A stretch of DNA of 64,000 nt from a phage. Shown piece after piece: positions 20,807-60,670 of the stretch. The notes under the pieces were generated by a model. The model saw nothing but the letters and a program-made list of their open reading frames with translations. It was not told the origin of the DNA and did not search any database. Position numbers and translations under genes: made by a program. Numbering within the stretch: the stretch's first letter is position 1; every line of letters begins with the position of its first letter. The DNA is taken from the NCBI GenBank assembly GCA_020619395.1, contig GCA_020619395.1_4860.1, one strand, 5' to 3'.

Positions 20807-21461
20807 TAGCCGCTTCCTCGGTTTCTACTACAACGTCGTTGTGATCGACGATGGCGTTTTTAGGGAGTTCTTTCGAATTATTAGCCAAAGCTTCGGCCAA
20901 CAGAACTTCGGCTTGTTCCACGGTATGACCGTTATTCAGCGCCTGCTTCACGAACTTCACTTTCGCGTTATACGTGGAGAAGATTTCGATACTGGTGCCC
21001 TGAATATCCATCGCAAGCATGTTTGCCCGCTGGTCAATCAGGGACAGTTCGGTGTGGTCGACGTGGAACTGGTCTTTGATTTCTTTCCACGTTTTGCTGT
21101 TATCGTTCAGCATGTCAAACACCGGCACAGCCTTAGCATCTGCCTCAACAATCAGTTTACCGAACAGCTCTTTGCCCTGTTGGCACATGCCAAGGAAAGC
21201 CGCCTGTGCTTCATCCAGCGCTTTCAATGTGAAAGCTTTCAGCTCTTCGTGCGCAATGGCTTCAGTTACTTCACGCTCCCGATCAATTTTGCCTGACAGG
21301 AATTCGGTACTTTCGATAAACACAGCTTGTTTTTTCAACACAGACTGCATCATCGCCTTGACGAAATCGCGTGCGTCTTTACGTGGGTTATAAGCGGGTT
21401 TCTTTTTGCGACGACTCATCGTAATAATCCTTTTGCAATTAGGGGTTGGGTGTATACACAA
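20799..21461 (-). CDS. hypothetical protein
   Basis: 220-aa ORF; the true start may be the Met at 21419 (MSRRKKK...), just downstream of the palindrome at 21446-21472. Confidence 0.5.
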   Translation of the reverse strand: MCIHPTPNCKRIITMSRRKKKPAYNPRKDARDFVKAMMQSVLKKQAVFIESTEFLSGKIDREREVTEAIAHEELKAFTLKALDEAQAAFLGMCQQGKELFGKLIVEADAKAVPVFDMLNDNSKTWKEIKDQFHVDHTELSLIDQRANMLAMDIQGTSIEIFSTYNAKVKFVKQALNNGHTVEQAEVLLAEALANNSKELPKNAIVDHNDVVVETEEAANV

Positions 21462-21479
21462 TATACACCCAAAACGTGA

Positions 21480-21863
21480 TTAACTTGCATCGTGTGGAAC
21501 AGTCACCCAATCGTGCCATTTTTCAGAGTAAAGACGATAAGCCATCTTTGGATTCTGATCGACGCTGCCGGCCGGGTTCTCATTCCACAACACGTACGTA
21601 TATAACTCGTACGACGAAGTGTTACGGATACTTGACGTGCGGGTGACGTAGTACGTCAACCCGCGTTGGTTAAGGAACAGGCCGCTGTAATGTTCAGTGA
21701 CCATGTAGTAGTGAAACGCCTGGTTGATAGTGGCGTCGGTGCAGAGTTTCTTAGCGACGTCTTCTACGCCGGGATACGCCTTTAGAATGTTTTCGAGAAA
21801 ACTTGCTAAAGTCATTCCGATGTAGGGTGGCAGCGGCTCTGCTGGACGCGGCGGAGTGAGCAT
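21480..21863 (-). CDS. small hypothetical ORF overlapping the 3' end of the helicase gene
   Basis: 127-aa ORF in another frame over 21751..21863; could be real or a shadow ORF. Confidence 0.25.
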   Translation of the reverse strand: MLTPPRPAEPLPPYIGMTLASFLENILKAYPGVEDVAKKLCTDATINQAFHYYMVTEHYSGLFLNQRGLTYYVTRTSSIRNTSSYELYTYVLWNENPAGSVDQNPKMAYRLYSEKWHDWVTVPHDAS

Positions 21864-24495
21864 GTGATTTCCTTACAACGTAGGGGGATGTCGCGATACG
21901 GAACGACAATACGACATCCTTGAGTGATTTCTGGCGGGCATTCAGGTAATTGCAATGCTTCGGTACGTTATACGCATGGAATAACCACACCGTTGGGTCT
22001 ATTTCACCCCACTCGTTGTGGAGAATCTTACGTGGACGACCGGCCATCTGTTCGTTCAGTTGCTGGTCTTCTACCGGGGTTGAGATGTACATGTGCACCA
22101 ACCCAGGTTTATCGACCGCAGTCCCCGCTTTCCCCGGTGTGGAGATAGAGAAGTCTGCTTGGATAAAGTCGTCATACGAATCGCCTGCATTATATTTCGC
22201 CACCATGAGTGGATGGAATACAGGGTCACGCGATAACTTATCTTTCACATACTCGGTAAAGAACTCACACATTGCAACCGTAGCAAATAGCAGCAAACAC
22301 TTCTGGCCGGGTTGATACCGTTTAAGGAACGATTTCTCAACCACATCCCAGATCATGTTCGCGTATTCTAAATGCAAGTTCTCTTTAATCAGCTTCCCTT
22401 CGAAGAGTTTGTGGTTATACGGCGTCATCTTCGACGCCCACCACGCGAACTTCTTATCATCCAGTCGATAGTACAACGCTTTCACGTCAACCACCGGAAT
22501 GATTGGAATACTGATTCGGTACTCCATTGGGAAGCGTTCTAAATACCGCTCCGCGATAAAGGCTTTACTGCTACCCGGTTTAAGAGTTGCAGACATCTCT
22601 ATCGATGCCGGCGGGTTCAACATTATACCAGCCATGTAAACGAGGTGAAAATGCTCGTGCACCTCATCCATCGCCACCAGACCCACACCCAGAACATCAT
22701 AAAACGTATCCAGGTCCACAGGGTTAGTCGCAGCAGTGTTAATGTACTCCTTCAGGAAACGCTGTAGAGAGACCGTGGGGAGGATTATTACCTTAATACC
22801 GCGTCTATCTAGCTCTCCCGACTTACCCATCTCCAGCGCGTCGTAAATCGCCTGTACGCCTGTACAAACTAACACCTCGTCACGAAGTATACGAAGTCCT
22901 GTTTCATCATCACAGACGTCAAACAGCCATTTGGGAACGTATGACGGACGGTGAATCAATGCGGTACGGGTTCCCCGTTTAACCATCGACTTCATACAGG
23001 TCTTGGTGTTGTGCGTAACGATCCACTTGTCCACCACAAACAACGCATCGTCGTTCTCGACACGAATACACGTGGCAAGATCACGACCAATGGGTTCGAT
23101 AGACTTAACACGGAGTTTCAGTATATCGGTGTATTGTCCGTTATCACGACACAGTTCTTTCTTCCTTGGAAGATGGAACAGTTTCGATGGTGTTTTGTGG
23201 CGGATGGAGACGTTATAAGCCAAACGACCTTCACGACGTTCGCCGTTGTGTGTGAAGAACGGACGTTTCTCGCGTAGTGTTGCAATCCCTCCTAAAGACC
23301 GCACAAGTTCCTGAACACCTAAAGCCAATTCTTTACTGGTGGAACAGAAAGAAGGCGTACCACCATCCTTATCCACAGTACCGTCAGTATCCATCAAGCC
23401 ACGCAACAACTCCCACCGTTGTTCGATGGACGTTTCGAAGTAATCTCCAGGTATGAACTTTTCCCAAGACCTGCAGCCAATTAACCCTAACCGCTCAAGC
23501 TCTCTGCGGACAAGGTTAACACCGCCGGGACAAGAGATGCACTTCGTTATCCCATCGCTGTACGATGAATCATGGATTGCATGTCCAGCGGGCATGACCT
23601 CAGCAACACGGTCACGAATCTCCACATCGCCTTTGGTGTATAAAACACCAGGCATCGATAGGGAGCCATCACCCAAGAGGATACCGAGTAAATACGGATG
23701 AATGACAAAATCCTTAGCTGGCTTTTCCTCTGGTTCTGGTAATGGGATGTATACCCGTGGATTAGGCATCGAAATTAAACGTTTCATCTCTAGGGTATCA
23801 CGTACACCCCAGCGACGATTCTCGGTGGTATTAACGTAGTAGCTTTGCCACAAGTGCTCGCCACATACGTCAACACTCCTACCATCCCAAAACGTCACCT
23901 GATACAGGTCAACCACACCCTGTGGGAACACTCCAGAGACCATTGCTGGTTTTCCGTCACGCCCCGTAACGTAATCACCTAGCTGTATATCCTCAATGTT
24001 CTTCCAACCACCCGGTACACGCACACGCGTACCATGCGCGAGAGCTTTTCCTCTTCCTGTTTGTATCGCGAAAACCGTTTGTGAGCGCGATGGATCTGTT
24101 GCGGCGGCTACGACTTCATTCTGATAATAGAAACGCGACTCTGGGTCTGTCTCTTCCATCTTGAATCCGTAATTATCAAACGTGCACTTATAAGGTGTTC
24201 CTCGTACAGGACGGTGCTCTGTTAGCTTGTACTGAAAAGCGTATTCAATTGCTGCTCGTTGGAGGATATGTTTAATCTTCTCAGCGAACACTTTATGGAA
24301 AATGAACGTCCTTAAAGACGGAATGTGGGCGTAGTACGCGTCACCGCGTTCCGTGGTTATTCGTCCATGTTGCTTGCCCATCTTTGGGGCGTGCATATTC
24401 TCTTCGGCCCACGCGAGTATGGCCCTTTCAGCCTGGCGGATAGGGACTTCAACCCGTACCCCCATACTCGTGTAAGTCATTTGAATTTCTACCAT
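21751..24495 (-). CDS. SF2 DExH-box helicase, intein-containing precursor
   Basis: Walker A is split as ...AIQTGRGK / TKTC... by the intein; downstream DEVH (motif II), MSATL (motif III) and QMAGRPRK (motif VI-like). Start set at ATG 24495 because the upstream gene's terminator (24512-24538) lies between it and the ORF-track start 24552. Confidence 0.65.
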   Translation of the reverse strand: MVEIQMTYTSMGVRVEVPIRQAERAILAWAEENMHAPKMGKQHGRITTERGDAYYAHIPSLRTFIFHKVFAEKIKHILQRAAIEYAFQYKLTEHRPVRGTPYKCTFDNYGFKMEETDPESRFYYQNEVVAAATDPSRSQTVFAIQTGRGKALAHGTRVRVPGGWKNIEDIQLGDYVTGRDGKPAMVSGVFPQGVVDLYQVTFWDGRSVDVCGEHLWQSYYVNTTENRRWGVRDTLEMKRLISMPNPRVYIPLPEPEEKPAKDFVIHPYLLGILLGDGSLSMPGVLYTKGDVEIRDRVAEVMPAGHAIHDSSYSDGITKCISCPGGVNLVRRELERLGLIGCRSWEKFIPGDYFETSIEQRWELLRGLMDTDGTVDKDGGTPSFCSTSKELALGVQELVRSLGGIATLREKRPFFTHNGERREGRLAYNVSIRHKTPSKLFHLPRKKELCRDNGQYTDILKLRVKSIEPIGRDLATCIRVENDDALFVVDKWIVTHNTKTCMKSMVKRGTRTALIHRPSYVPKWLFDVCDDETGLRILRDEVLVCTGVQAIYDALEMGKSGELDRRGIKVIILPTVSLQRFLKEYINTAATNPVDLDTFYDVLGVGLVAMDEVHEHFHLVYMAGIMLNPPASIEMSATLKPGSSKAFIAERYLERFPMEYRISIPIIPVVDVKALYYRLDDKKFAWWASKMTPYNHKLFEGKLIKENLHLEYANMIWDVVEKSFLKRYQPGQKCLLLFATVAMCEFFTEYVKDKLSRDPVFHPLMVAKYNAGDSYDDFIQADFSISTPGKAGTAVDKPGLVHMYISTPVEDQQLNEQMAGRPRKILHNEWGEIDPTVWLFHAYNVPKHCNYLNARQKSLKDVVLSFRIATSPYVVRKSHAHSAASSRAAATLHRNDFSKFSRKHSKGVSRRRRRR
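23008..24045 (-). mobile_element. intein (346 aa, class-3-like, with LAGLIDADG homing-endonuclease domain) in the helicase P-loop
   Basis: Block A ALAHGTRVRV starting with Ala (codon gct, - strand, 24043-24045); block B ...GEHLW; LAGLIDADG-like LLGILLGDGS and LLRGLMDTDGTV; block F DLATCIRV; block G WIVTHN followed by +1 Thr; excision restores TGRGKT. Confidence 0.7.
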
Positions 24496-43763: not shown

Positions 43764-46043
43764 TTACTCCTCCGCTTCTTCCCCATCCTCTTCCTCTCCA
43801 TCACGTTCAGATTTCTTAACGTACTCGCCGCTACCTAATTCTTCCTTGACCGAGTCTACGGACTCGCCGTAGTAATCCGAAAGCAGACGAGTTCTGTTCT
43901 TGTCCATCATGAAGACACCCAGACATTCCAGGATGTGATAGTAAGGTTCTACTGTGGAGAATGCGCTTCGACGTGTGTCTGCAGCATCAATCAGCTCCGG
44001 AGGAATACCGAAGTTTTCCACCAAGAACTCTGGCAGTATCAGAGTACGATAGGTGCGATAGTTGTTCTCTTCGAACCACCGTGTTGCAGTGGTCTTAATC
44101 ATCGGGTCTTTAATGTTTTCCAGCCACTCTTTAACGGCTGTTTTGTTCTCCAGGTTTACCGGAAGTTTCACGGCGTCATAAGGCGGTTCGTCCAGGTAGC
44201 CGTACTTCGGTCCAAAGATGGCGTTGTACATGCGGTGATAGTGGTAGCTCTTTTCATCATCTTCAGAGTACGCACTACGGTCTTTGACGTTGGTTGTTTT
44301 CAGGTAGCCTGCTTTACCAGCGCGAATAGAATCCACCACAACGTGCTCAATTGCAGCAACCTTTTCCAGCAGAGGCAGAATCTTAATCTTGTCACCACGT
44401 GCCACGATCTCACAGAGTTCTTTAATCGTGCGTTTGAACTCTTTCATGACCACCGGAGGAATGTTCGACGTACGTAAAGACACGCCCTTAACTTCTAACT
44501 CAGGGTCAGACTTCAACTGCCCTTCCTGGCCAGTGATGATGGAGAAATAGTGTTTTGCTTTCGTGGTTAACGCAAAGGAGTCGAACTTAAATTCGTTCTT
44601 CATTGCGTACAAAAACAGACGCTCTTTCGCCACACCGATATTCGCCGACATACTCGCCATCAGATGACGTAAGTGCTGGGTTGCGATATAAATCATCGCA
44701 TCCGATACGCGCGTAGCTTCACGACCGTAATGTTGGCCGGTATACCACTGCGCCCACCACTGTGCAGTCATCATCGTGGAGTCGGTATCAGACACCACGC
44801 CGACACGACGAACCACGTCGGGCATCCTGGCAATGTTGATTGGCAGGTTTTTGGTGGTCAGGATATTACGAATCAAGCACGCGTACTTACCGATGGTTTT
44901 CTGCAGATACACAGCTGAGCGAATCAGCTCTTTGTATTTTTCCTGCTTATCCCACGGTTCCGCTTTGTTCGTGTTTTCGTCTTTGAGTTTAACGTCAGAG
45001 AACGACTTACCTAACGGCACGATATCAGTACGGAACTGCGAGATAATGATCTGCATGTCACCGTCGATAGAGCGCTCAGCGGCATCCCAATCAGTGATCT
45101 CGTCTTCCATCTCCTCGGCAATCAGCGCGCCGATAAATCCGCGCATGAATTCATCGTTGTATTTCGCCAGGTGGTAGAAGTCACCCATGTAGACAAACGC
45201 TGCACGTACCAGCGGGCTACAATTACCGACGTAGTGACGAATGAACTCCAGCCCTTCGTCGTTACGGAAGTAAAACTCTGCAGAGTACATAACCACTTCC
45301 ATAACCTCGTCCACTGTTGGGTAGTGGAGGTTATAGAGTTCCATACACTTCTTGAACTCCGCAAAGTTAGTCAGTGTACCGATAGAAAGTAGGTGGTCGA
45401 TAACACGGGACGGCGTGTCGTAGTGACGATTACCGCCCAGTAGACGTTCGTTGCCCGCGTTACCGAACGATGTAGCCGTACGGCAGGTTGACGTCAATAC
45501 AGAGTGCGAGGACTGGTTAAAGATTACCGTGTACGGTGATGAGAATGCACCCGACATTCCGTTGTTCAACGTCTTAACAGCGTTCTGTTCGTTCTTTTTG
45601 TTAATACGCAGAACTTCATTACCCGCAGCACCTGCTGCGTACATCTCTTTCTTAACGACCGCACGCTTACGCACGTTCTCTGCGGTAAATTCAGCAAGCT
45701 TAGAGCGCTTGACGTGCTCAGGCAGATAAAAGGTCAGCGACGGTGCAGAAATAATCTGCTTATCAATCACTGTACGGAACAGTTTATCTACCGTGGTGTA
45801 TTTTTCTTCGCGATCGCCGGTCTTTTGATTGCGCACCCACATCTTACACACGGGGAATTCGTGTACTAACTCACCACCAGGTTGGAACATTTCTTCGACC
45901 TGCTGTCGACAGAACTCCAAAGAATATTTCCCGTTGGTGACGGTATGAATGTAGAGCGCCAGTTGTTCGTAGTACGCATCGATAACGTCAATGTCGCGAT
46001 GATACTCGTCTTGACTAAGACGAAATGGTGAATTGTAGTCCAC
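43764..46043 (-). CDS. family-B DNA polymerase, polymerase-domain part (candidate)
   Basis: 759-aa ORF with motif A-like SAPSLTFYLP (cf. D-x-x-SLYPS), motif B-like KTLNNGMSGAF (K-x3-N-S-x-Y-G) and motif C VVSDTDS (YGDTDS); no exonuclease motifs in this ORF. Confidence 0.55.
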   Translation of the reverse strand: MDYNSPFRLSQDEYHRDIDVIDAYYEQLALYIHTVTNGKYSLEFCRQQVEEMFQPGGELVHEFPVCKMWVRNQKTGDREEKYTTVDKLFRTVIDKQIISAPSLTFYLPEHVKRSKLAEFTAENVRKRAVVKKEMYAAGAAGNEVLRINKKNEQNAVKTLNNGMSGAFSSPYTVIFNQSSHSVLTSTCRTATSFGNAGNERLLGGNRHYDTPSRVIDHLLSIGTLTNFAEFKKCMELYNLHYPTVDEVMEVVMYSAEFYFRNDEGLEFIRHYVGNCSPLVRAAFVYMGDFYHLAKYNDEFMRGFIGALIAEEMEDEITDWDAAERSIDGDMQIIISQFRTDIVPLGKSFSDVKLKDENTNKAEPWDKQEKYKELIRSAVYLQKTIGKYACLIRNILTTKNLPINIARMPDVVRRVGVVSDTDSTMMTAQWWAQWYTGQHYGREATRVSDAMIYIATQHLRHLMASMSANIGVAKERLFLYAMKNEFKFDSFALTTKAKHYFSIITGQEGQLKSDPELEVKGVSLRTSNIPPVVMKEFKRTIKELCEIVARGDKIKILPLLEKVAAIEHVVVDSIRAGKAGYLKTTNVKDRSAYSEDDEKSYHYHRMYNAIFGPKYGYLDEPPYDAVKLPVNLENKTAVKEWLENIKDPMIKTTATRWFEENNYRTYRTLILPEFLVENFGIPPELIDAADTRRSAFSTVEPYYHILECLGVFMMDKNRTRLLSDYYGESVDSVKEELGSGEYVKKSERDGEEEDGEEAEE

Positions 46044-46083
46044 GTCTGGCCCCTTGGTTTTTTACTCAGCTATAAGACTTGCG

Positions 46084-46120
46084 GGATACGTGAAAAAAGA
46101 AAAAAAATAACCCACTCCGA
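46084..46120 (-). terminator. rho-independent terminator after CDS 46135..46545
   Basis: Hairpin 46102-46119 (cccact / ccgaag / agtggg) with + strand A-run 46084-46100. Confidence 0.6.
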
Positions 46121-46134
46121 AGAGTGGGCTTACT

Positions 46135-46545
46135 TTAACCGGCAATACTCTCAACGATTTCAAAATCGACGTCATTGAAACCATTGGCAGCCAGGGCACG
46201 TTTAAGGTCGTCAATCTCCTGTTTGTTATCCAGGGTGACGGTGAAGCGCACCTTCGTGTTTTCGATAATCTGAACATCACGAATCCAGGCATCGGCAGCG
46301 ACTTTTGGTTTGCCGTCAACACCTTTGAAAATCAGATACGTGTATTTGTTCACATTATCTTCTGGCTGGGAAACAATGGAAGAGTAGATATTCTTCTGCT
46401 CCGCCATCACATCCATATAACTTTTGGCCATCTCGTAGCCAACGCCGGTTGCCAGAATAATTACACGCGTCTCTTGCCCTTTCAAAGGGGTGTCGTAAAC
46501 AATGTTAACTTTTTGCCCAGCGACCAGTGTGCGTAAATCGAACAT
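46135..46545 (-). CDS. small hypothetical protein (last gene of a 9-gene small-protein operon)
   Basis: 136-aa ORF; start overlaps the stop of 46545..47144. Confidence 0.55.
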   Translation of the reverse strand: MFDLRTLVAGQKVNIVYDTPLKGQETRVIILATGVGYEMAKSYMDVMAEQKNIYSSIVSQPEDNVNKYTYLIFKGVDGKPKVAADAWIRDVQIIENTKVRFTVTLDNKQEIDDLKRALAANGFNDVDFEIVESIAG

Positions 46546-47144
46546 TATTCCTCCTCAGGAACATCAATAAGCAGCCTCATATCCAAAGCATTGGTCACTG
46601 GTGTTTTCGGGAAGTCCACCTTGAGAACCAACGTACGGATAGCGCCATTATGCGCCTCTAAGAACATCTTCACCGGCTCAACATAATGCGCCATAACTGC
46701 CTCCGTTACGGCGGTCGCCATTAGATCCAACGTGTAGTGCTTGAGCGTGGCCCAGTGTGAGCTGTCTTGCTCTTTGTACATCAACGCTAAATCTAACAAT
46801 GGTGTCAGCCCGTTAAAATGTGACTCGGTGCTGGCTTCCATTGCAACATTAAACTTCCACCGACGGTACTCGTCAGTCAGTAACGTAAAGAAGTCGTGCA
46901 AGAACGTAAGGTCGGTGCGAGGCAACATGCAACGAAACTCGTACGTATAGCTAGTCAGTGTTTCACGTATAAGTTCGTGTATCTCGTCCTGGTCCAATTC
47001 TTTTACGGGTATCTCCACGGTGATACGCGGCAGGCGGACTACGGTGTCAACCACCAAATCCAAAAACCGCATACCGTCCGGAAGATACCCCACGACCCCC
47101 AAGTCCACATTAATCAAGTGGTTGGCGATCACCTTGTAGATCAT
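46545..47144 (-). CDS. hypothetical protein
   Basis: 199-aa ORF in the operon. Confidence 0.55.
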   Translation of the reverse strand: MIYKVIANHLINVDLGVVGYLPDGMRFLDLVVDTVVRLPRITVEIPVKELDQDEIHELIRETLTSYTYEFRCMLPRTDLTFLHDFFTLLTDEYRRWKFNVAMEASTESHFNGLTPLLDLALMYKEQDSSHWATLKHYTLDLMATAVTEAVMAHYVEPVKMFLEAHNGAIRTLVLKVDFPKTPVTNALDMRLLIDVPEEE

Positions 47145-47153
47145 TCGTACTCC

Positions 47154-47585
47154 TTAACATTCAACACAGATGAGTGCGTTGCCAATTTCATTCATAAGGA
47201 GTGAAACCTTTGTCTTTTTTGCTCCGTCTTCTGGAGTCAAGCCAGCCATGCCCCACACACGTTCTATCACGGAAAGGATTTCATAGAACCGAACATCATC
47301 CTTAATCCCACTGCTCATGCTGTAGCAGTTTAGAGGCAGCACCTTTTCAGTACCCCACATCCCGCGCAACTGTTCCAGTATCAACGCAGGGTCTGGGGGA
47401 ATAAAAGTAAGAAAGTTCTTACCCTTACCTAGCCCATTAACAATAGAACGAACCGTTAATTCGGCGTAACTGGCCAGAAACAAATAAGCGACAGCGGGCT
47501 CGATCTCGCTAGTATCAGCAATCTCGGCCCGTGCCAACAACGACTCATATTTGAAGACTTCGCCTATGGTCATGTACAGTTTCAT
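47154..47585 (-). CDS. hypothetical protein
   Basis: 143-aa ORF with 4-nt overlap with the upstream gene. Confidence 0.55.
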   Translation of the reverse strand: MKLYMTIGEVFKYESLLARAEIADTSEIEPAVAYLFLASYAELTVRSIVNGLGKGKNFLTFIPPDPALILEQLRGMWGTEKVLPLNCYSMSSGIKDDVRFYEILSVIERVWGMAGLTPEDGAKKTKVSLLMNEIGNALICVEC

Positions 47586-48070
47586 TCGCAGATTAACACC
47601 ACATCGTTAAAACTATCACCTACATACGTTTGATATCGACCCGGATACAGCGACTCTATCAATCCAGCGAAACCAGTTAAGTTTGTTAACTCTTCGACCA
47701 ACAAACTTACCGCAGCGCCGAAGGCAGCTTGATGTTGTTCGGGCGAACCTTGTGCTGCCAGAAACGTCGTATCGACAGACATTTCTTTAGCGAACTGGTC
47801 AACGGACAGACCATCGGTCACCAACTCCCAATTGCCCAGAGGTTCAAGCGTGTCTTCCTGTAACAAATCAACCATTGTCGATGGGTCACGAGTTTTCACA
47901 CCGATGATATACGCAAACGCAAAACGTTGATAAAAATCACGTATCTGCGTTTCATCAATCTCCAGGTTACTGGCTTCCAATACACGCAATGCTGCTTCGC
48001 GAACGTGCTCGTAAAACCGAGTCGCGCTATATTGGTTCGCAATATCCGCCACATCAAACAGAACGCTCAT
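47582..48070 (-). CDS. hypothetical protein
   Basis: 162-aa ORF with 4-nt overlap. Confidence 0.55.
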   Translation of the reverse strand: MSVLFDVADIANQYSATRFYEHVREAALRVLEASNLEIDETQIRDFYQRFAFAYIIGVKTRDPSTMVDLLQEDTLEPLGNWELVTDGLSVDQFAKEMSVDTTFLAAQGSPEQHQAAFGAAVSLLVEELTNLTGFAGLIESLYPGRYQTYVGDSFNDVVLICE

Positions 48071-48576
48071 ACACGACCTCCGAGATTACCGATAAGCAAA
48101 TCGATAACAGGCAGAAGTTGTGGGGTGATTCGCTCGTACGCTTCCTGGCTGGCAAACTGTGGGAATTTATCACCACCGTTATAGTCTAATAAGAATTCGA
48201 CATCCGCCGGATTGCGCGTTGTGTATTGTGCACCGACCCAACGACCGTAGTGAGTAAACCAATAAGGAGACTGCGATACGGCGGTCATATACGCACGACC
48301 GATGTTTTGAATTGCGGTGCCGTAAGTGATTACTTGCTCATTTTCCAACACAACGCCGTGCGCATTCAGTGTACGAGAAACAAACCCAAAGGTATTGTTC
48401 ATCATAAACTTTAACTCACTACCAATGGTTCCACGTTCCACGAAGCTCATGGCGGTATTGATTATCGAGTTCAAATCGTCATTCACTTCGCGGAGCACAT
48501 CGTTTGGCGAAAACTCCGTTAACGGCCCAGCCAATAACTGATAGCCGGGGATATAAAAATGAGATCGCTCAATCAT
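48067..48576 (-). CDS. hypothetical protein
   Basis: 169-aa ORF with 8-nt overlap. Confidence 0.55.
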   Translation of the reverse strand: MIERSHFYIPGYQLLAGPLTEFSPNDVLREVNDDLNSIINTAMSFVERGTIGSELKFMMNNTFGFVSRTLNAHGVVLENEQVITYGTAIQNIGRAYMTAVSQSPYWFTHYGRWVGAQYTTRNPADVEFLLDYNGGDKFPQFASQEAYERITPQLLPVIDLLIGNLGGRV

Positions 48577-54517: not shown

Positions 54518-54661
54518 AGCAAACGGACGGATTCGAACCGTCGAAATATCCGATTATGAGTCGGGTGTTAATTCCTCTAACTTCGCTGCTCTTGCTTTGA
54601 CCGGACTCGAACCGGCGACCTTCCTCGAAGAGGTTGCTCTACCTACCTGAGCTACAAAGCC
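54518..54661 (-). ncRNA. two tandem degenerate tRNA-like elements
   Basis: Element 1 (about 54518-54595): D-arm GTTA/TAAC, anticodon-like arm CCCGA-CTCATAA-TCGGA (CAU loop), T-arm GACGG-TTCGAAT-CCGTC, acceptor pairing imperfect. Element 2 (54593-54661): acceptor GGCTTTG/CAAAGC, D-arm GCTC/GAGC, T-arm GCCGG-TTCGAGT-CCGGT, but anticodon arm and variable region too short. Confidence 0.3.
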
Positions 54662-56013: not shown

Positions 56014-56089
56014 TGGCGGGGGCACGAGGTTTCGAACCTCGAACCTTCGGTTTTGGAGACCGGTGCGCTACCAATTGCGCCATACCCCC
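56014..56089 (-). tRNA. tRNA-Trp (anticodon CCA)
   Basis: Hand-folded 76-nt cloverleaf: acceptor GGGGGTA/TGCCCCC, U8, D-arm GCGC-AATTGGTA-GCGC, anticodon arm CCGGT-CTCCAAA-ACCGA (U33, CCA, A37), variable AGGTT, T-arm CGAGG-TTCGAAA-CCTCG, discriminator G, encoded CCA. Confidence 0.85.
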
Positions 56090-56674: not shown

Positions 56675-57246
56675 TGGGCCACCTTCCTCGGTGTGTACTC
56701 GAATGTCGTTTCCGTCAGGTAATCCTGGCGCATCCAAGTCAGCTCCTGGCCTTGCTCACACTTGATGTTCGTAACCAAACCGGCTTCAAGTGGTAGCTCA
56801 CAGACCGAAACGATTCCGGGTTTATCACCGTCCCAATGTGCGAATGCCGCCTCGGGGGTTGTTGCCCCGACGATGATTCCGGCGTCGACATAGTCTTCGG
56901 TAGCGACGTCGCTGTAAACCAGGTACAGCTTGATGATCGACGGTTGCTTGGCTTGGTAGCCGAAGTACACTCTGGTTTTACCCGTGGTAAGATTCCAGGT
57001 GTGTCTGGCGGATTCGGAAACAAATTCCAAACCGGGATGGGAATAATCATCCCAACGGCCTTGCTTCAGAACCACCCCAGGCGTAACCATCGGGGTAGAC
57101 ACAGCGCCGTCGTAGCAGCACGCAACCGCTGGACGCTCTGCGCTAACCGGCCAGAAGGATTTGGCCTGCTCCTCGTTTTCGGCTAAGACAACCAAAACCG
57201 ATTCAGGCATCTCGTTTCGGTAAAACCCGACGCGATACAAGTTCAT
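56671..57246 (-). CDS. hypothetical protein with internally duplicated NLY/KLY...VV-A..EEQA/PEAA..W module
   Basis: 191-aa ORF with GGAG Shine-Dalgarno upstream; segments MNLYRVGFYRNEMPESVLVVLAENEEQAKSFW and KLYLVYSDVATEDYVDAGIIVGATTPEAAFAHW are similar to each other and to 55707..55961. Confidence 0.5.
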   Translation of the reverse strand: MNLYRVGFYRNEMPESVLVVLAENEEQAKSFWPVSAERPAVACCYDGAVSTPMVTPGVVLKQGRWDDYSHPGLEFVSESARHTWNLTTGKTRVYFGYQAKQPSIIKLYLVYSDVATEDYVDAGIIVGATTPEAAFAHWDGDKPGIVSVCELPLEAGLVTNIKCEQGQELTWMRQDYLTETTFEYTPRKVAQ

Positions 57247-58164
57247 GGTTTAATTCTCCGTTTGGTTTATCATACCTCACGCAGAATCTGTAAATTTTAA
57301 TCAGCCAGGTACCGTCGTTTCTCAACGGGAGTACCCACCCCTCTCGTCTATTCCGAGCCGTCAAGATCCGATCACCCCACTTTGGAGTTATCCCCCAAGT
57401 CTGCGGTTCTACACGCAGACCCCTTTTCGACGCAACGCCGAATTCGAATCAGTTTTGGCCCGACGCCAGAGCGGAATCAGCGATAACTATCGGAGGTAAG
57501 TTCAACGACGTCTCTCCGCTGCCCAGTCCTCTGGCGCTGCCACGGTCAACTCGGATTTTGTCATGGGTGCGCAGTCGACTTTCTCGACACTCTCGCAAAC
57601 CGAACTACGCCCGACGTAGCACCGTCGGCAGGTCGGTTATTTACCGAGTACCTGAATGGGTGGTGATTGTCGGAATCCCCGCCGACGCTCACCGGTTCTG
57701 TTCCACGGCGAAAGTTTTCCAGAACATAATAAATCACGCAGTGTTAGATTGCGCTTTGTCGAAGACACCACGGTAGGTATTTTCGAAAAAGCGTCCTGGG
57801 TATCAGTCCCAGGACTTGGAGCCCTAGCGTGCAGGGTTTAAAAGTGATTGGACCATTGGCGCGGTCAATCGCTATTCGCATATAACAACAAACTCACGTA
57901 ATCAAAAAATTACCGGCTCGAGGCGTAGGCGTCCAGGAGCCGGTGAGTCACACAGCAGTGAGTCCCTCTGCGGGGATTTTCGTGGAGCTTGTCGTTGGAA
58001 TAAAAATCCGTCCCCGGACGGGTTGGTGTTGTGGGTCGACTTGTCAGAGTCTACCGACCAGGGAGGCGACCACCGAAGCTATGGGTTTTGGACATCGAGT
58101 GGTGGTCTGAACACACGATAGGGAAACCACGTAAAAAATACACAGGGTACCCAAACTAGGACTT

Positions 58165-58600
58165 CCGTCCGATCACGATCTCTTAATAAGGATCACGCGC
58201 GCGCCTGCACGCGTTTTAAGATCTTAATATATTAATATATTTATTTATATAAATAATTATAATAATTAAATATAATACCTAAAGGTATTATTATATTTAA
58301 TATTATTATATATCTTTTAAAAGATCCTGGAGGATACGGGTGTGCGCACGCGCACGCGTATAAGGAAAGGGTCTTCGACCCGATCCACAGGATCAATCTA
58401 AAAAACAATCTAAGTGATTGTTTTAAAAAGAAATTTTGAGAATTAGATTAAATTATCCCCTAAGGGGGATTTTAGAGCGAGTTAAACAACCCAAAGAACT
58501 CGTAAGTAACCGACAGTGTGTGTCGGTTACAGAACGATCCAGTTTTCACCCAGACATGGCACGAAGTGCTACCCAACGTGTGATCGTCGTCGCCGGCCGC
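58165..58600. other. origin/unwinding-element-like region: AT-rich core flanked by alternating CG tracts, GATC cluster, direct repeats and palindromes
   Basis: About 110-bp core with over 90% A+T (58213-58320) between cacgcgcgcgcctgcacgcg and gtgtgcgcacgcgcacgcg; 9 GATC at 58171, 58177, 58191, 58220, 58323, 58382, 58391, 58536, 58582; caatcta direct repeats 58393 and 58406; palindromes 58454-58470 and 58506-58530. Confidence 0.3.
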
Positions 58601-58958
58601 GACCGTCGTCCCGGAACCGAAACGGGAATGGCACTCTCGCGCTCTCAGCGGCCCGCTGGCGCGATTTTCCGGTATGGGGAACCCAAGTGTACTGGGTCTG
58701 AGTTAAATCTCGTTCTAGCGCTTTCTAGAGCGTTTTTAATAACTGGTTAAAAAACATACAATCCTGAATCCCCATTCCCTGAATTTCCTCGCCCCGACAA
58801 AAATAAATTCTCTGTCTCGATACATAACCCCCTCTAAAACGCACGTAACCGACCCTAGAAAACGATAAACTGCCAAAAACGAGCTACCCTACGTCGATAC
58901 CACCTAATCGTTTTCTGATGCTTCCCAGACCCCTTTAACCGGTTGGTTAAAAAGTAAC

Positions 58959-59009
58959 CAAAAAAATAAAAAAAAATAAGATTGGCGTACTCCCCGAAGA
59001 GAGTACGCC
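58959..59009 (-). terminator. rho-independent terminator after CDS 59017..59571
   Basis: Hairpin 58984-59009 (ggcgtactc / cccgaaga / gagtacgcc) with a long + strand A-run 58959-58980. Confidence 0.6.
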
Positions 59010-59016
59010 TAGTGAC

Positions 59017-59571
59017 TTAACACTTGATGGTGTAGCCATCAAGGCCAAGGTGTACTGGTTTTATCCATAACCCTGGCTCCCCGAAAATATTCAGGTCGTA
59101 AGTTTGGTAATGCATGATCTTTGCAGGAACATGCACACCCATGCGTTGCAGAAATTCCCAGACGGCGACGTAGCGTTCACGAGTGATGAACATTAGCCCG
59201 GAGTCGAACCCGGAACCGATGTCTAGGAAATTACCAAGAGAACTGTCAAAACTTGACACCCCATCTTGAGTAAGTGCGACCAACCCTTTAGTTAAATCTC
59301 TGTGGTTGTCAATGAAGTTACAGAGATCTACGATGGTTATTTGACCGTAAATACGACGGAGGACGGCAGCAACAGCCAAAATCTCGCTGGTATTTCCGTA
59401 GTCACCTAAAGGGTTATGGTCCATCATCGCAGTAATTATGCTTGTGTCGCAGAGGTCGATTAACCGCTGGTCATGTACCACCAGGTTAAGACCTTGCCCC
59501 ACCTGCACGGTTGGCGCAGTAAACATAGGAGGCTCCTTACGTTTTGACTGACTGTGAAGGTACTCTGGCAT
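59017..59571 (-). CDS. hypothetical protein
   Basis: 184-aa ORF with terminator immediately downstream. Confidence 0.55.
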   Translation of the reverse strand: MPEYLHSQSKRKEPPMFTAPTVQVGQGLNLVVHDQRLIDLCDTSIITAMMDHNPLGDYGNTSEILAVAAVLRRIYGQITIVDLCNFIDNHRDLTKGLVALTQDGVSSFDSSLGNFLDIGSGFDSGLMFITRERYVAVWEFLQRMGVHVPAKIMHYQTYDLNIFGEPGLWIKPVHLGLDGYTIKC

Positions 59572-60670
59572 CGTACATTAAAAAGATTTCCAGCAGGCTC
59601 ATACCCGTCGCGTAAAAGATTTGGTCTGTGATGACACTCACTAACGCATCTGGGTCAATCGCATCTACTGCAAAATCGCTGTCGAACTGCCAGAACTCGA
59701 CATCATCCCCCTTTTCAAACGTCGCGGCATACAATCCAGGTTTCACACCACGCCGGAACGAAAAGAGTTTTGCGTCAGACTCAGTGTCCTTACCATAAAT
59801 TTCCCCGTCGGTCCGTGTGATCGCTGCGCGTTTACACCGAGTTACCGTAAGGAGCGCACGGTTTGCAGATGCTTGCGATTTAAACGGATAGGGGCCATCG
59901 TATGTCGGGACATTCTGGTCGCCTAAGGCATCAAGTGCCTTACTCCGATAGACTACCGGAGACTTAAAATTACACAGTCGATTCCCTTCGGTAAACATTG
60001 TGTATTCGACCTTAACGTCGGTACCGACGAGGTCAGCAGGGGACACTTTGTAGTGTGCTAACTGTCCCTGCACGCGGCGAGAGAGCATCGATGCCAGGAA
60101 GGTATGGTTGCCCTGTGTACGCAAGACATAACCGAACTCTGTGCAGTCGACGATACGAGCGTCCATACGTCGTACAGGCTCTAGCCGGTAAGTCACATCA
60201 TTCGCTTCGATAAGAAACTGACTGATGCTAACATCGCGAGATCGATGTTTGATTGCTTCAAACACTTCACCCGCTTCCAGAATAGCTGGTTCAATTACAT
60301 TGACCTGGAATGGGAGGGGTTTCGTCGGCCGTTGACCCATTGTTGTCACTGTCATCGAACGTAGCCACGGATCGTCCTCGCTAGGGTCATTGGAAAGCCA
60401 ATGTGTTAACCAGCGAGAAAGGTTCTGAGGAATCGTTGCGGTTGAATATAAAATCACGGTACCCATTATACCTGCATCAGCTAGCAAGCGCGCGAGTACC
60501 GTGTTCATCGAATCGTATTTGCCATTTCGAAGAATAGGTAATCCCCCGACCTGGACCATTTCGCAGATGACGCCGTGCGGCAGCACCCACATCTTCACTT
60601 GTTGAGCAGAATGTATCTGCCCAGTGCGCAGCTTTTCTTGCCACGCGTGCTTACGTTCATAGTTCATCAT
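59537..60670 (-). CDS. hypothetical protein
   Basis: 377-aa ORF. Confidence 0.55.
   Translation of the reverse strand: MMNYERKHAWQEKLRTGQIHSAQQVKMWVLPHGVICEMVQVGGLPILRNGKYDSMNTVLARLLADAGIMGTVILYSTATIPQNLSRWLTHWLSNDPSEDDPWLRSMTVTTMGQRPTKPLPFQVNVIEPAILEAGEVFEAIKHRSRDVSISQFLIEANDVTYRLEPVRRMDARIVDCTEFGYVLRTQGNHTFLASMLSRRVQGQLAHYKVSPADLVGTDVKVEYTMFTEGNRLCNFKSPVVYRSKALDALGDQNVPTYDGPYPFKSQASANRALLTVTRCKRAAITRTDGEIYGKDTESDAKLFSFRRGVKPGLYAATFEKGDDVEFWQFDSDFAVDAIDPDALVSVITDQIFYATGMSLLEIFLMYDARVPSQSVKT

Follow-up and report, generated by a model that had tools for sequence, protein, structure and literature searches.

The window analysed here, i.e., 64,000 nucleotides of phage DNA (contig GCA_020619395.1_4860.1 of GenBank assembly GCA_020619395.1), carries at positions 58165-58600 a genuine, unique, conserved, non-coding cis element, and our comparisons support its resemblance to a replication origin or DNA-unwinding element. 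As a tentative assignment, its most likely role is that of a single-copy DNA-level signal that serves SPN3US-like phages as replication origin or as an unwinding element associated with one. An origin fits best since the element combines a core suited to unwinding, conserved boxes, palindromes and alternating tracts that respond to supercoiling, and an array of hairpins suited to single-strand signals. The original prediction had described it as a Dam/SeqA-regulated origin or unwinding element. Of this, the unique, conserved, non-coding cis element with origin-like anatomy stands, while the host-type mechanism does not. With Salmonella phage SPLA5c the window shares 98.7% identity, with SPN3US about 98%, i.e., it belongs to the genus Seoulvirus, a genus of nucleus-forming jumbo phages. 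All genome-wide statistics refer to the complete SPLA5c genome, which we rebuilt (239,099 bp).

Within this genome, the element stands out in base composition, site density and alternation. Its AT-rich core (108 nt, eight G/C, 92.6% A+T) lies where it had been predicted and provides the sole 100-nt window with an A+T fraction of at least 0.80 in 239 kb (maximum 0.94). Single-stranded core DNA folds far better than its shuffled counterparts (z = -5.6). The nine predicted GATC sites (58171, 58177, 58191, 58220, 58323, 58382, 58391, 58536, 58582) are all present, which is the window maximum per 436 bp. GATC is depleted across SPLA5c (495 sites, observed/expected 0.53, mean 0.90 per 436 bp), and the genome-wide density check places the element as its top GATC cluster with a Poisson tail of 4.9e-7; a cluster of at least nine is reached in only 0.2% of random placements of the 495 sites (scan p about 0.002). 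The claim of alternating GC tracts on both sides of the core holds for the right one, whose 23 nt are the longest alternating purine-pyrimidine run of the genome (rank 1 of 42 runs of at least 12 nt), whereas the alternation of the left tract is interrupted. Every conserved motif of the element is single-copy in the genome.

The single-copy element is conserved in four genera (Seoulvirus, Erskinevirus, Machinavirus, Wellingtonvirus) and in four metagenome contigs. The gap that holds it is syntenic and alignable in Seoulvirus relatives (SPAsTU with 71% identity, pEa_SNUABM_29 with 67%), in Erskinevirus (phiEaH2, Asesino), in Machinavirus (Huxley, Caitlin, ChrisDB, pEa_9, pSal-SNUABM-04) and in Wellingtonvirus (pEa_11, Kwan). 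Pattern searches add three near-complete uncultivated genomes and further metagenome contigs; the same kind of search in 185,579 bacterial and archaeal genomes gave no match to the element. No conserved reading frame was found in the gap. Small conserved open reading frames were considered and dropped, because tblastx yields only short matches that switch frame. In Derbicusvirus, the next relatives (Cronobacter phage CR5, Erwinia phage Phobos), the syntenic gap is shorter (about 550 nt, two GATC) and shows neither of the two boxes described below. It has a tract of 78-80% A+T with CATTCATT-like repeats and a GGTATCCC..GGATACC hairpin, possibly an equivalent of the element with another architecture. 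In Wellingtonvirus (Kwan, 1205-1714; also Wellington), an HNH homing-endonuclease gene is inserted in the left part of the gap and the core element is intact.

Two GATC-bearing boxes flank the AT-rich core (Table 1). Only one Machinavirus sub-lineage deviates from the otherwise invariant core of the left box (L-box), TAATAAGGATCAC, and the multi-genus alignment shows one to three GATC sites ahead of it across genera. The right box (R-box) has the core AAAAGATCCTGnAGGA and holds the best-conserved GATC of the element. The predicted direct repeats ttttaagatc fare differently: the right copy is invariant, while the left one is kept only in close relatives and phiEaH2. The caatcta direct repeats are present in the window but not conserved across the homologues.

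Palindromes, on the other hand, are kept by shape rather than by sequence. The AT-rich spacer retains one or two short palindromes with compensatory arm variants (ACC/GGT, CCC/GGG, ATC/GAT, ACTC/GAGT). The second GC palindrome differs in nearly every lineage and stays palindromic, with the end CGCGTATAAT/G. To its right, hairpins D, E, G and H follow one another with conserved single-stranded motifs between them. Both predicted hairpins (58454-58470, 58506-58530) are perfect and maintained by compensatory changes, e.g., at six pairs of hairpin G (five inner, one outer) as double changes. Mini-hairpin H reads GCGAAGC in phiEaH2 and in homologue L010.

We then have to ask at which level these hairpins are read. 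Across 14 homologues, at least six palindrome positions stay perfect Watson-Crick duplexes with virtually no G-T or A-C wobble. For the right arm, RNAalifold reports 23 conserved pairs in a five-genome alignment, of which nine show compensatory double changes. The same program was applied to the left end of the gap (57247-57520) in six phages from four genera. There, the minus strand gives 68 conserved pairs with 28 compensatory double changes, many invariant G-U pairs and -62.6 kcal/mol; for the plus strand, the figures are 48 pairs and -40.9 kcal/mol, and C-A mismatches occur. The minus strand of this region is thus a candidate for a new structured RNA or for a long 5' leader of the downstream operon (191-aa protein, HslV-like peptidase, tRNA-Trp). 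The structured RNA possibly extends to about 58100, and 57561-58170 also folds well when three genomes are compared. Rfam 15 has no match better than E = 0.1 for 57200-59050, all being far below the gathering scores. Since the core hairpins are virtually free of wobble pairs, unlike the G-U-rich neighbouring RNA, we infer that the core acts as a DNA-level signal.

The GATC cluster can be linked to a methylase of the phage itself. The phage encodes a 264-aa adenine methylase of the D12 class (PF02086, E = 1.6e-52), whose nearest relatives of solved structure are E. coli Dam (2G1P, E = 4.5e-54, full length) and DpnM. Because both are GATC-specific, a GATC specificity of the phage enzyme is well supported by homology. 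The genera with Dam orthologues (E <= 1e-62, similar genome position) are precisely the four with the element; at this threshold none was found in Derbicusvirus (CR5, Phobos). The predicted Dam connection is therefore strengthened by an orthologue that is phage-encoded and co-occurs with the element. In most lineages of the four genera, individual GATC sites keep their positions or are replaced by others, the number staying at 7-11 per 608 nt. Given this conservation and number-preserving turnover, the GATC cluster is under selection and linked to phage Dam. It modulates the core function rather than defining it: with only 2-4 GATC (R-box, far-right, 0-2 others), the element persists in one Machinavirus sub-lineage, i.e., its core function does not depend on the cluster. 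As a separate observation, tetranucleotide palindromes of SPLA5c are unevenly represented (observed/expected 0.53 for GATC, 0.20 for CTAG, 0.60 for GGCC, 0.57 for TATA, 1.54 for ACGT), which suggests selection against particular restriction or methylation targets.

From these features we propose a course of initiation. The L-box and the R-box would bind a phage factor. The AT-rich core, proposed to be an unwinding or bending spacer of 75-117 bp and the least stable duplex in the genome, would melt under negative supercoiling. The GC-rich alternating palindromes and the short embedded ones may delimit or stabilise the open state via cruciform, hairpin or Z-prone transitions, and the perfect hairpins on the right, including the GNA-triloop mini-hairpin and the invariant 17-mer, could provide single-strand signals for helicase or primase loading. 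Methylation of the GATC sites by phage Dam would yield a hemimethylation clock inside the phage nucleus. Initiation would not be of the DnaA/oriC type, and transcription of the adjacent structured RNA may help, as in T4 oriF/G, T7 and ColE1. In its complete form, i.e., one defined site that starts replication (or gates packaging) throughout the SPN3US clade without DnaA-like boxes, via the supercoil-responsive trio of AT-rich unwinding core, cruciform-capable palindromes and Z-prone alternating GC tracts plus a phage-Dam hemimethylation clock, possibly with the adjacent 270-850-nt structured RNA as activator or primer, this scheme is speculative and rather improbable.

Table 1. Features of the element and of the gap that holds it (window positions).
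Feature	Position	Conservation and remarks
Gene-free gap holding the element	57247..59016	1.77 kb; both flanking operons on minus strand; syntenic and conserved
Conserved block CCACGTAAAAAAT	58119..58131	50-60 nt left of L-box; relatives ..TGTAA(A/T)..; single-copy in genome
Left GATC doublet and L-box (GATCACGATCTC-TTAATAAGGATCACGCG)	58171..58199	From alignments; single-copy in window and genome
Left GC-rich, mostly alternating purine-pyrimidine palindrome ACGCGCGCGCCTGCACGCGT	58195..58214	ACGCGCGT, similar or longer in relatives
AT-rich core	58213..58320	Sequence drifts between relatives; AT-richness, length (75-117 nt) and short palindromes kept
Central palindrome ATAATACC-TAAA-GGTATTAT	58272..58291	Arms vary compensatorily in relatives (CCC/GGG, ATC/GAT)
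R-box TTAAAAGATCCTGGAGGA	58317..58334	Invariant bar position 14 in most homologues; small changes in two Wellingtonvirus genomes
Right GC-rich alternating palindromic tract	58340..58362	Ends in CGCGTATAAG; TATAAT in relatives
Hairpin D (GGGTC-TTC-GACCC)	58369..58381	Other perfect 6-10-bp stems at the same place in relatives
Variable GATC zone	58382..58394	1-3 GATC in most lineages, positions turn over; contains DnaA-box-like ATCCACA
TAAGT-N3-TGTTTTTAAAA-N-AAATTTTT block	58402..58453	Conserved, AT-rich; window copy includes CAATC/GATTG hairpin
Hairpin E (TCCCC-TAAG-GGGGA)	58454..58470	Four different stems across genera, all perfect
Hairpin G with outer helix (TCGT..GTAACCGACA-gtgtg-TGTCGGTTAC..ACGA)	58500..58537	3' foot overlaps GATC 58536
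Mini-hairpin H (GCAC-GAA-GTGC), then TACCCAACGTnTGATCG	58559..58586	4-bp GC-rich stem, mostly GNA-type triloop; TACCCAACGTnTGATCG near-invariant

The gap is bordered upstream by a minus-strand operon of two genes (377 aa and 169 aa), which a strong terminator (59009-58984) closes, and downstream by the minus-strand operon of the 191-aa protein, the HslV-like peptidase and tRNA-Trp. Pfam and the PDB gave no match for the proteins adjoining the gap, and in PHROG they belong to families without assigned function only; none is recognisable as an initiator or a small terminase. The 377-aa protein (59537-60670, minus strand) is named 'putative DNA ligase' in Proteus phage 7 only, a name without Pfam or PDB support, and its family reaches Derbicusvirus. 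Close to tRNA-Trp (56014-56089), a gene-poor stretch holds two weak tRNA-like Rfam matches on the minus strand (54518-54589 with 30.6 bits, 54592-54661 with 40.9 bits), neither of which is called by ARAGORN. At 3.9 kb to the right of the element begins the genuine gene of the large terminase (phrog_2, E = 5e-63). The name 'terminase large subunit' is given a second time to a 914-aa protein at about 21400-24140 on the minus strand (SPLA5c 45521-48265), which is in fact a helicase (phrog_16) split by an intein with LAGLIDADG and Hint domains.

Several observations weigh against a replication origin. The Pfam, PDB and PHROG comparison of the neighbours recognises no initiator gene adjoining the element, and the AlphaFold model of the 169-aa neighbour, for which only eight usable homologues are available, is too poor for a fold search (predicted local distance difference test 52.8, predicted template modelling score 0.34). 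None of the 14 homologues has a DnaA box (TTATNCACA) at up to one mismatch, and the repeat search for iterons finds no conserved multi-copy family but only the two related boxes. The low GATC number of the Machinavirus sub-lineage named above counts here as well. Over the whole genome, cumulative GC skew tracks gene orientation; since the same holds for AT skew, cumulative skew was discarded as an origin signal. A two-term model of gene orientation and replication direction places the best origin sector at 220-25 kb of SPLA5c, with the element inside it at 11.4 kb, but its replication-strand term at four-fold degenerate sites is weak and not significant (permutation p = 0.12). In addition, T4-like recombination-dependent replication could render a fixed origin dispensable, and the distance to the genuine terminase gene fits a packaging site at least as well. 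We regard a packaging site and a transcription control region as serious rivals, which are not mutually exclusive with an origin.

The host-type part of the prediction, i.e., initiation under control of DnaA and SeqA, is not borne out. A dense GATC cluster as found in oriC is there (nine in 436 bp). However, the 7-of-9 match to a DnaA box is background (9.6 such matches per kb of window), and beside the lack of DnaA boxes and iterons no IHF consensus is found in the core of the homologues, pEa11 having a single match to its right. The three tandem AT-rich 13-mers (GATCTnTTnTTTT) have no counterpart array; there is only a 9-nt identity, GATCTCTTA, to the R 13-mer. A profile of oriC gives no hit to the element either (see below). 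SPN3US-like phages replicate inside a protein nucleus, which makes an involvement of SeqA or DnaA doubtful. Host proteins are largely excluded from this compartment (PMC13282480).

The first rival is a possible, if not a probable, reading: a transcription control region in which a terminator cascade of the upstream operon is combined with an AT-rich, Dam-sensitive promoter for the minus-strand RNA and the 191-aa/HslV/tRNA-Trp operon. It agrees with the uniform minus-strand orientation of the neighbouring genes, with the enrichment of terminator-like stems (10 vs 2.1 expected, 8/10 on the minus strand) and with the T-rich box that follows each GC palindrome on the minus strand. Furthermore, the strongly covarying, strand-specific RNA at the left end, which would begin somewhere left of the core, needs a promoter upstream, i.e., towards the element, and the conserved block at 58119..58131 could be its promoter or transcription start region. 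Elsewhere in the genome a recurrent promoter-like motif, TTTCAGATAGATATTATCTnnGTGA, is found in 23 gene-sense copies, nearly all intergenic and just upstream of genes, which probably marks one temporal promoter class (window copies, minus strand: 60706, 53152, 50186, 42276, 34076, 32660, 28917, 93). There is no copy in the gap, and since the downstream operon lacks the motif, a different promoter would have to lie there. A second motif, WTTTTTACR, was rejected as promoter, being intergenic, strand-biased and indistinguishable from terminator T-runs. The motifs of the element itself are all single-copy, i.e., not of a recurrent promoter or terminator type, and the invariance of L-box and R-box is far above what a terminator U-tract needs. 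The core hairpins lack the G-U wobble of the adjacent real RNA, and the plus-strand T-runs after hairpin E are not conserved. To our knowledge, a 108-nt core of 93% A+T together with the longest alternating run of the genome exceeds the requirements of known promoters.

The second rival, which we judge unlikely, is a packaging (pac) site of the P1 kind. Here, the terminase would recognise the flanking GATC boxes and bend or cut the DNA within the AT spacer, licensed by full methylation through phage Dam. Four GATC sites left and three right of a spacer of about 100 bp (4+3 or 3+3 in relatives) would suit such a mechanism, as would a Dam encoded by the phage itself and the terL gene only 3.9 kb away. 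We know of no pac site with this many perfect palindromes or with a 93% A+T core. The GATC sites share no common hexamer such as TGATCA/G, no small terminase is recognised among the neighbours, and the site, being in the non-coding gap that follows terL, is neither inside nor upstream of a small-terminase gene. SPN3US-like phages package by the headful mechanism and have circularly permuted genomes (PMC6614189; PMC5690319), and the P1 pac site has seven GATC hexamers in 161 bp, with their methylation gating its cleavage (PMC10028697). The element shares with P1 pac the two GATC groups that flank a centre, the phage Dam, the headful packaging and the near terminase gene. It differs in the missing TGATCA/G hexamer repeat, in its location outside a terminase-subunit gene, in its A+T content and in its many palindromes.

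In favour of a pac site, several independent assemblies break in the AT core or at most about 110 bp away from it (58221-58230, 58291-58293, 58430). These breaks are more simply explained by drop-out of AT-rich DNA in NexteraXT/454 sequencing and by records whose base 1 was aligned to SPN3US, and three near-complete metagenome or IMG/VR genomes run through the site unbroken. Many GenBank records begin in the AT core or beside it. We rejected these starts as physical ends, given that base 1 of the Erwinia phages was copied from SPN3US, that the SPFM genomes are NexteraXT/SPAdes assemblies, that several SPFM records are scrambled and that the metagenome genomes are unbroken. The scrambling itself concerns the ENA records of SPFM phages (LR535901.1 for SPFM1, and others), which match the window only in pieces of about 60 nt, in forward orientation but reversed order, as if the lines of a FASTA file had been reversed. 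It creates spurious 'hypothetical proteins'.

A third, quite improbable explanation makes the right arm (58369-58600) the gene of a structured non-coding RNA, with hairpins that act in RNA. The conserved pairs reported by RNAalifold would agree with it, and so would GNRA or UNCG-like loops in some relatives and a TATAAT-like hexamer just upstream. Rfam provides no match, though, the well-supported stems G and H show no strand-informative G-U or A-C pairs, a terminator T-run is conserved on neither strand, and the conserved single-stranded motifs include GATC sites, which are better explained at the DNA level. Non-coding RNAs are reported to be expressed by phiKZ (PMC13282480).

Least of all do we expect a mimic or diverged copy of host oriC that recruits or titrates SeqA, low-affinity DnaA-ATP or IHF. 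The idea arose post hoc, after the data had been seen, from exact words collinear with E. coli oriC (GATCTCTTA, TTTTAAGATC, GATCCTGGA, CGTATAAG, ATCCACAG; window span 58177-58390) with a chain score of 44 vs 14 +/- 7 for GATC-preserving shuffles (reached by 0/3000), and from a 14-nt identity of the L-box, TTAATAAGGATCAC, with Klebsiella spallanzanii oriC, where GATCCTGG and CGTATAAG follow inside the same 50-bp block. It is kept only as a very unlikely rival, having failed the test on relatives, i.e., the chain score is non-significant for every one of them including Salmonella phage SPAsTU, as well as an unbiased search of the whole phage genome with nhmmer, in which an oriC profile hidden Markov model of 57 species misses the element (best hit E = 5, elsewhere). 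A comparable chance match, ATCCTGACGCGTATAAG, exists in a coding region (16949-16933), and the missing DnaA boxes and core IHF consensus of the homologues as well as the exclusion of host proteins from the phage nucleus (see above) speak against it, too. The words in common with oriC are probably due to chance and a shared GATC- and AT-rich make-up.

Returning to the replication origin as preferred reading, we compared the element to known systems. In the literature we searched on SPN3US, phiKZ and Chimalliviridae, a 2026 review and a transposon-sequencing (Tn-seq) preprint on a related phage among it, we found no account of an origin, a pac site or termini. With enterobacterial oriC the element shares an AT-rich unwinding region beside a dense, conserved GATC cluster, its single-copy, non-coding nature and the short collinear words. 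Unlike oriC, it lacks DnaA boxes, the three tandem 13-mers and an IHF site and goes undetected by the oriC profile, but it shows GC-rich alternating palindromes, a longer and purer AT core, a phage-encoded methylase and replication in a protein nucleus. T4 oriF/oriG, the primary origin of T7 and ColE1 are similar in that we see an AT-rich unwinding element without iterons in a phage with RNA polymerases of its own, and a long structured RNA is encoded right beside it. In contrast to these systems, the structured RNA of the element points away from the AT core, not into it. The lytic origins oriS/oriL of herpes simplex virus 1 and oriLyt of human cytomegalovirus likewise have an AT-rich centre flanked by binding boxes and palindromes. 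A further similarity is the location in a complex non-coding region of more than 1.5 kb with associated RNAs, in a large double-stranded DNA virus with a nucleus-like replication compartment. Different from herpesvirus lytic origins, L-box and R-box are direct and not inverted repeats, and there is no sequence relationship.

The element bears on the question of how replication and packaging start inside the phage nucleus. It is a well-defined target of about 200-450 bp, conserved and single-copy, with phage dam as its partner gene, and both are open to direct tests in SPN3US, a genetically tractable system. Should the element prove to be an origin, shuttle or reporter constructs replicating within the phage nucleus could be built on it; should it prove to be a pac site, engineered transducing particles could. 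Finally, phage methylases are usually read only as anti-restriction devices. A phage Dam together with a GATC-dense cis element in an otherwise GATC-depleted genome suggests that they may also have a role in epigenetic timing.

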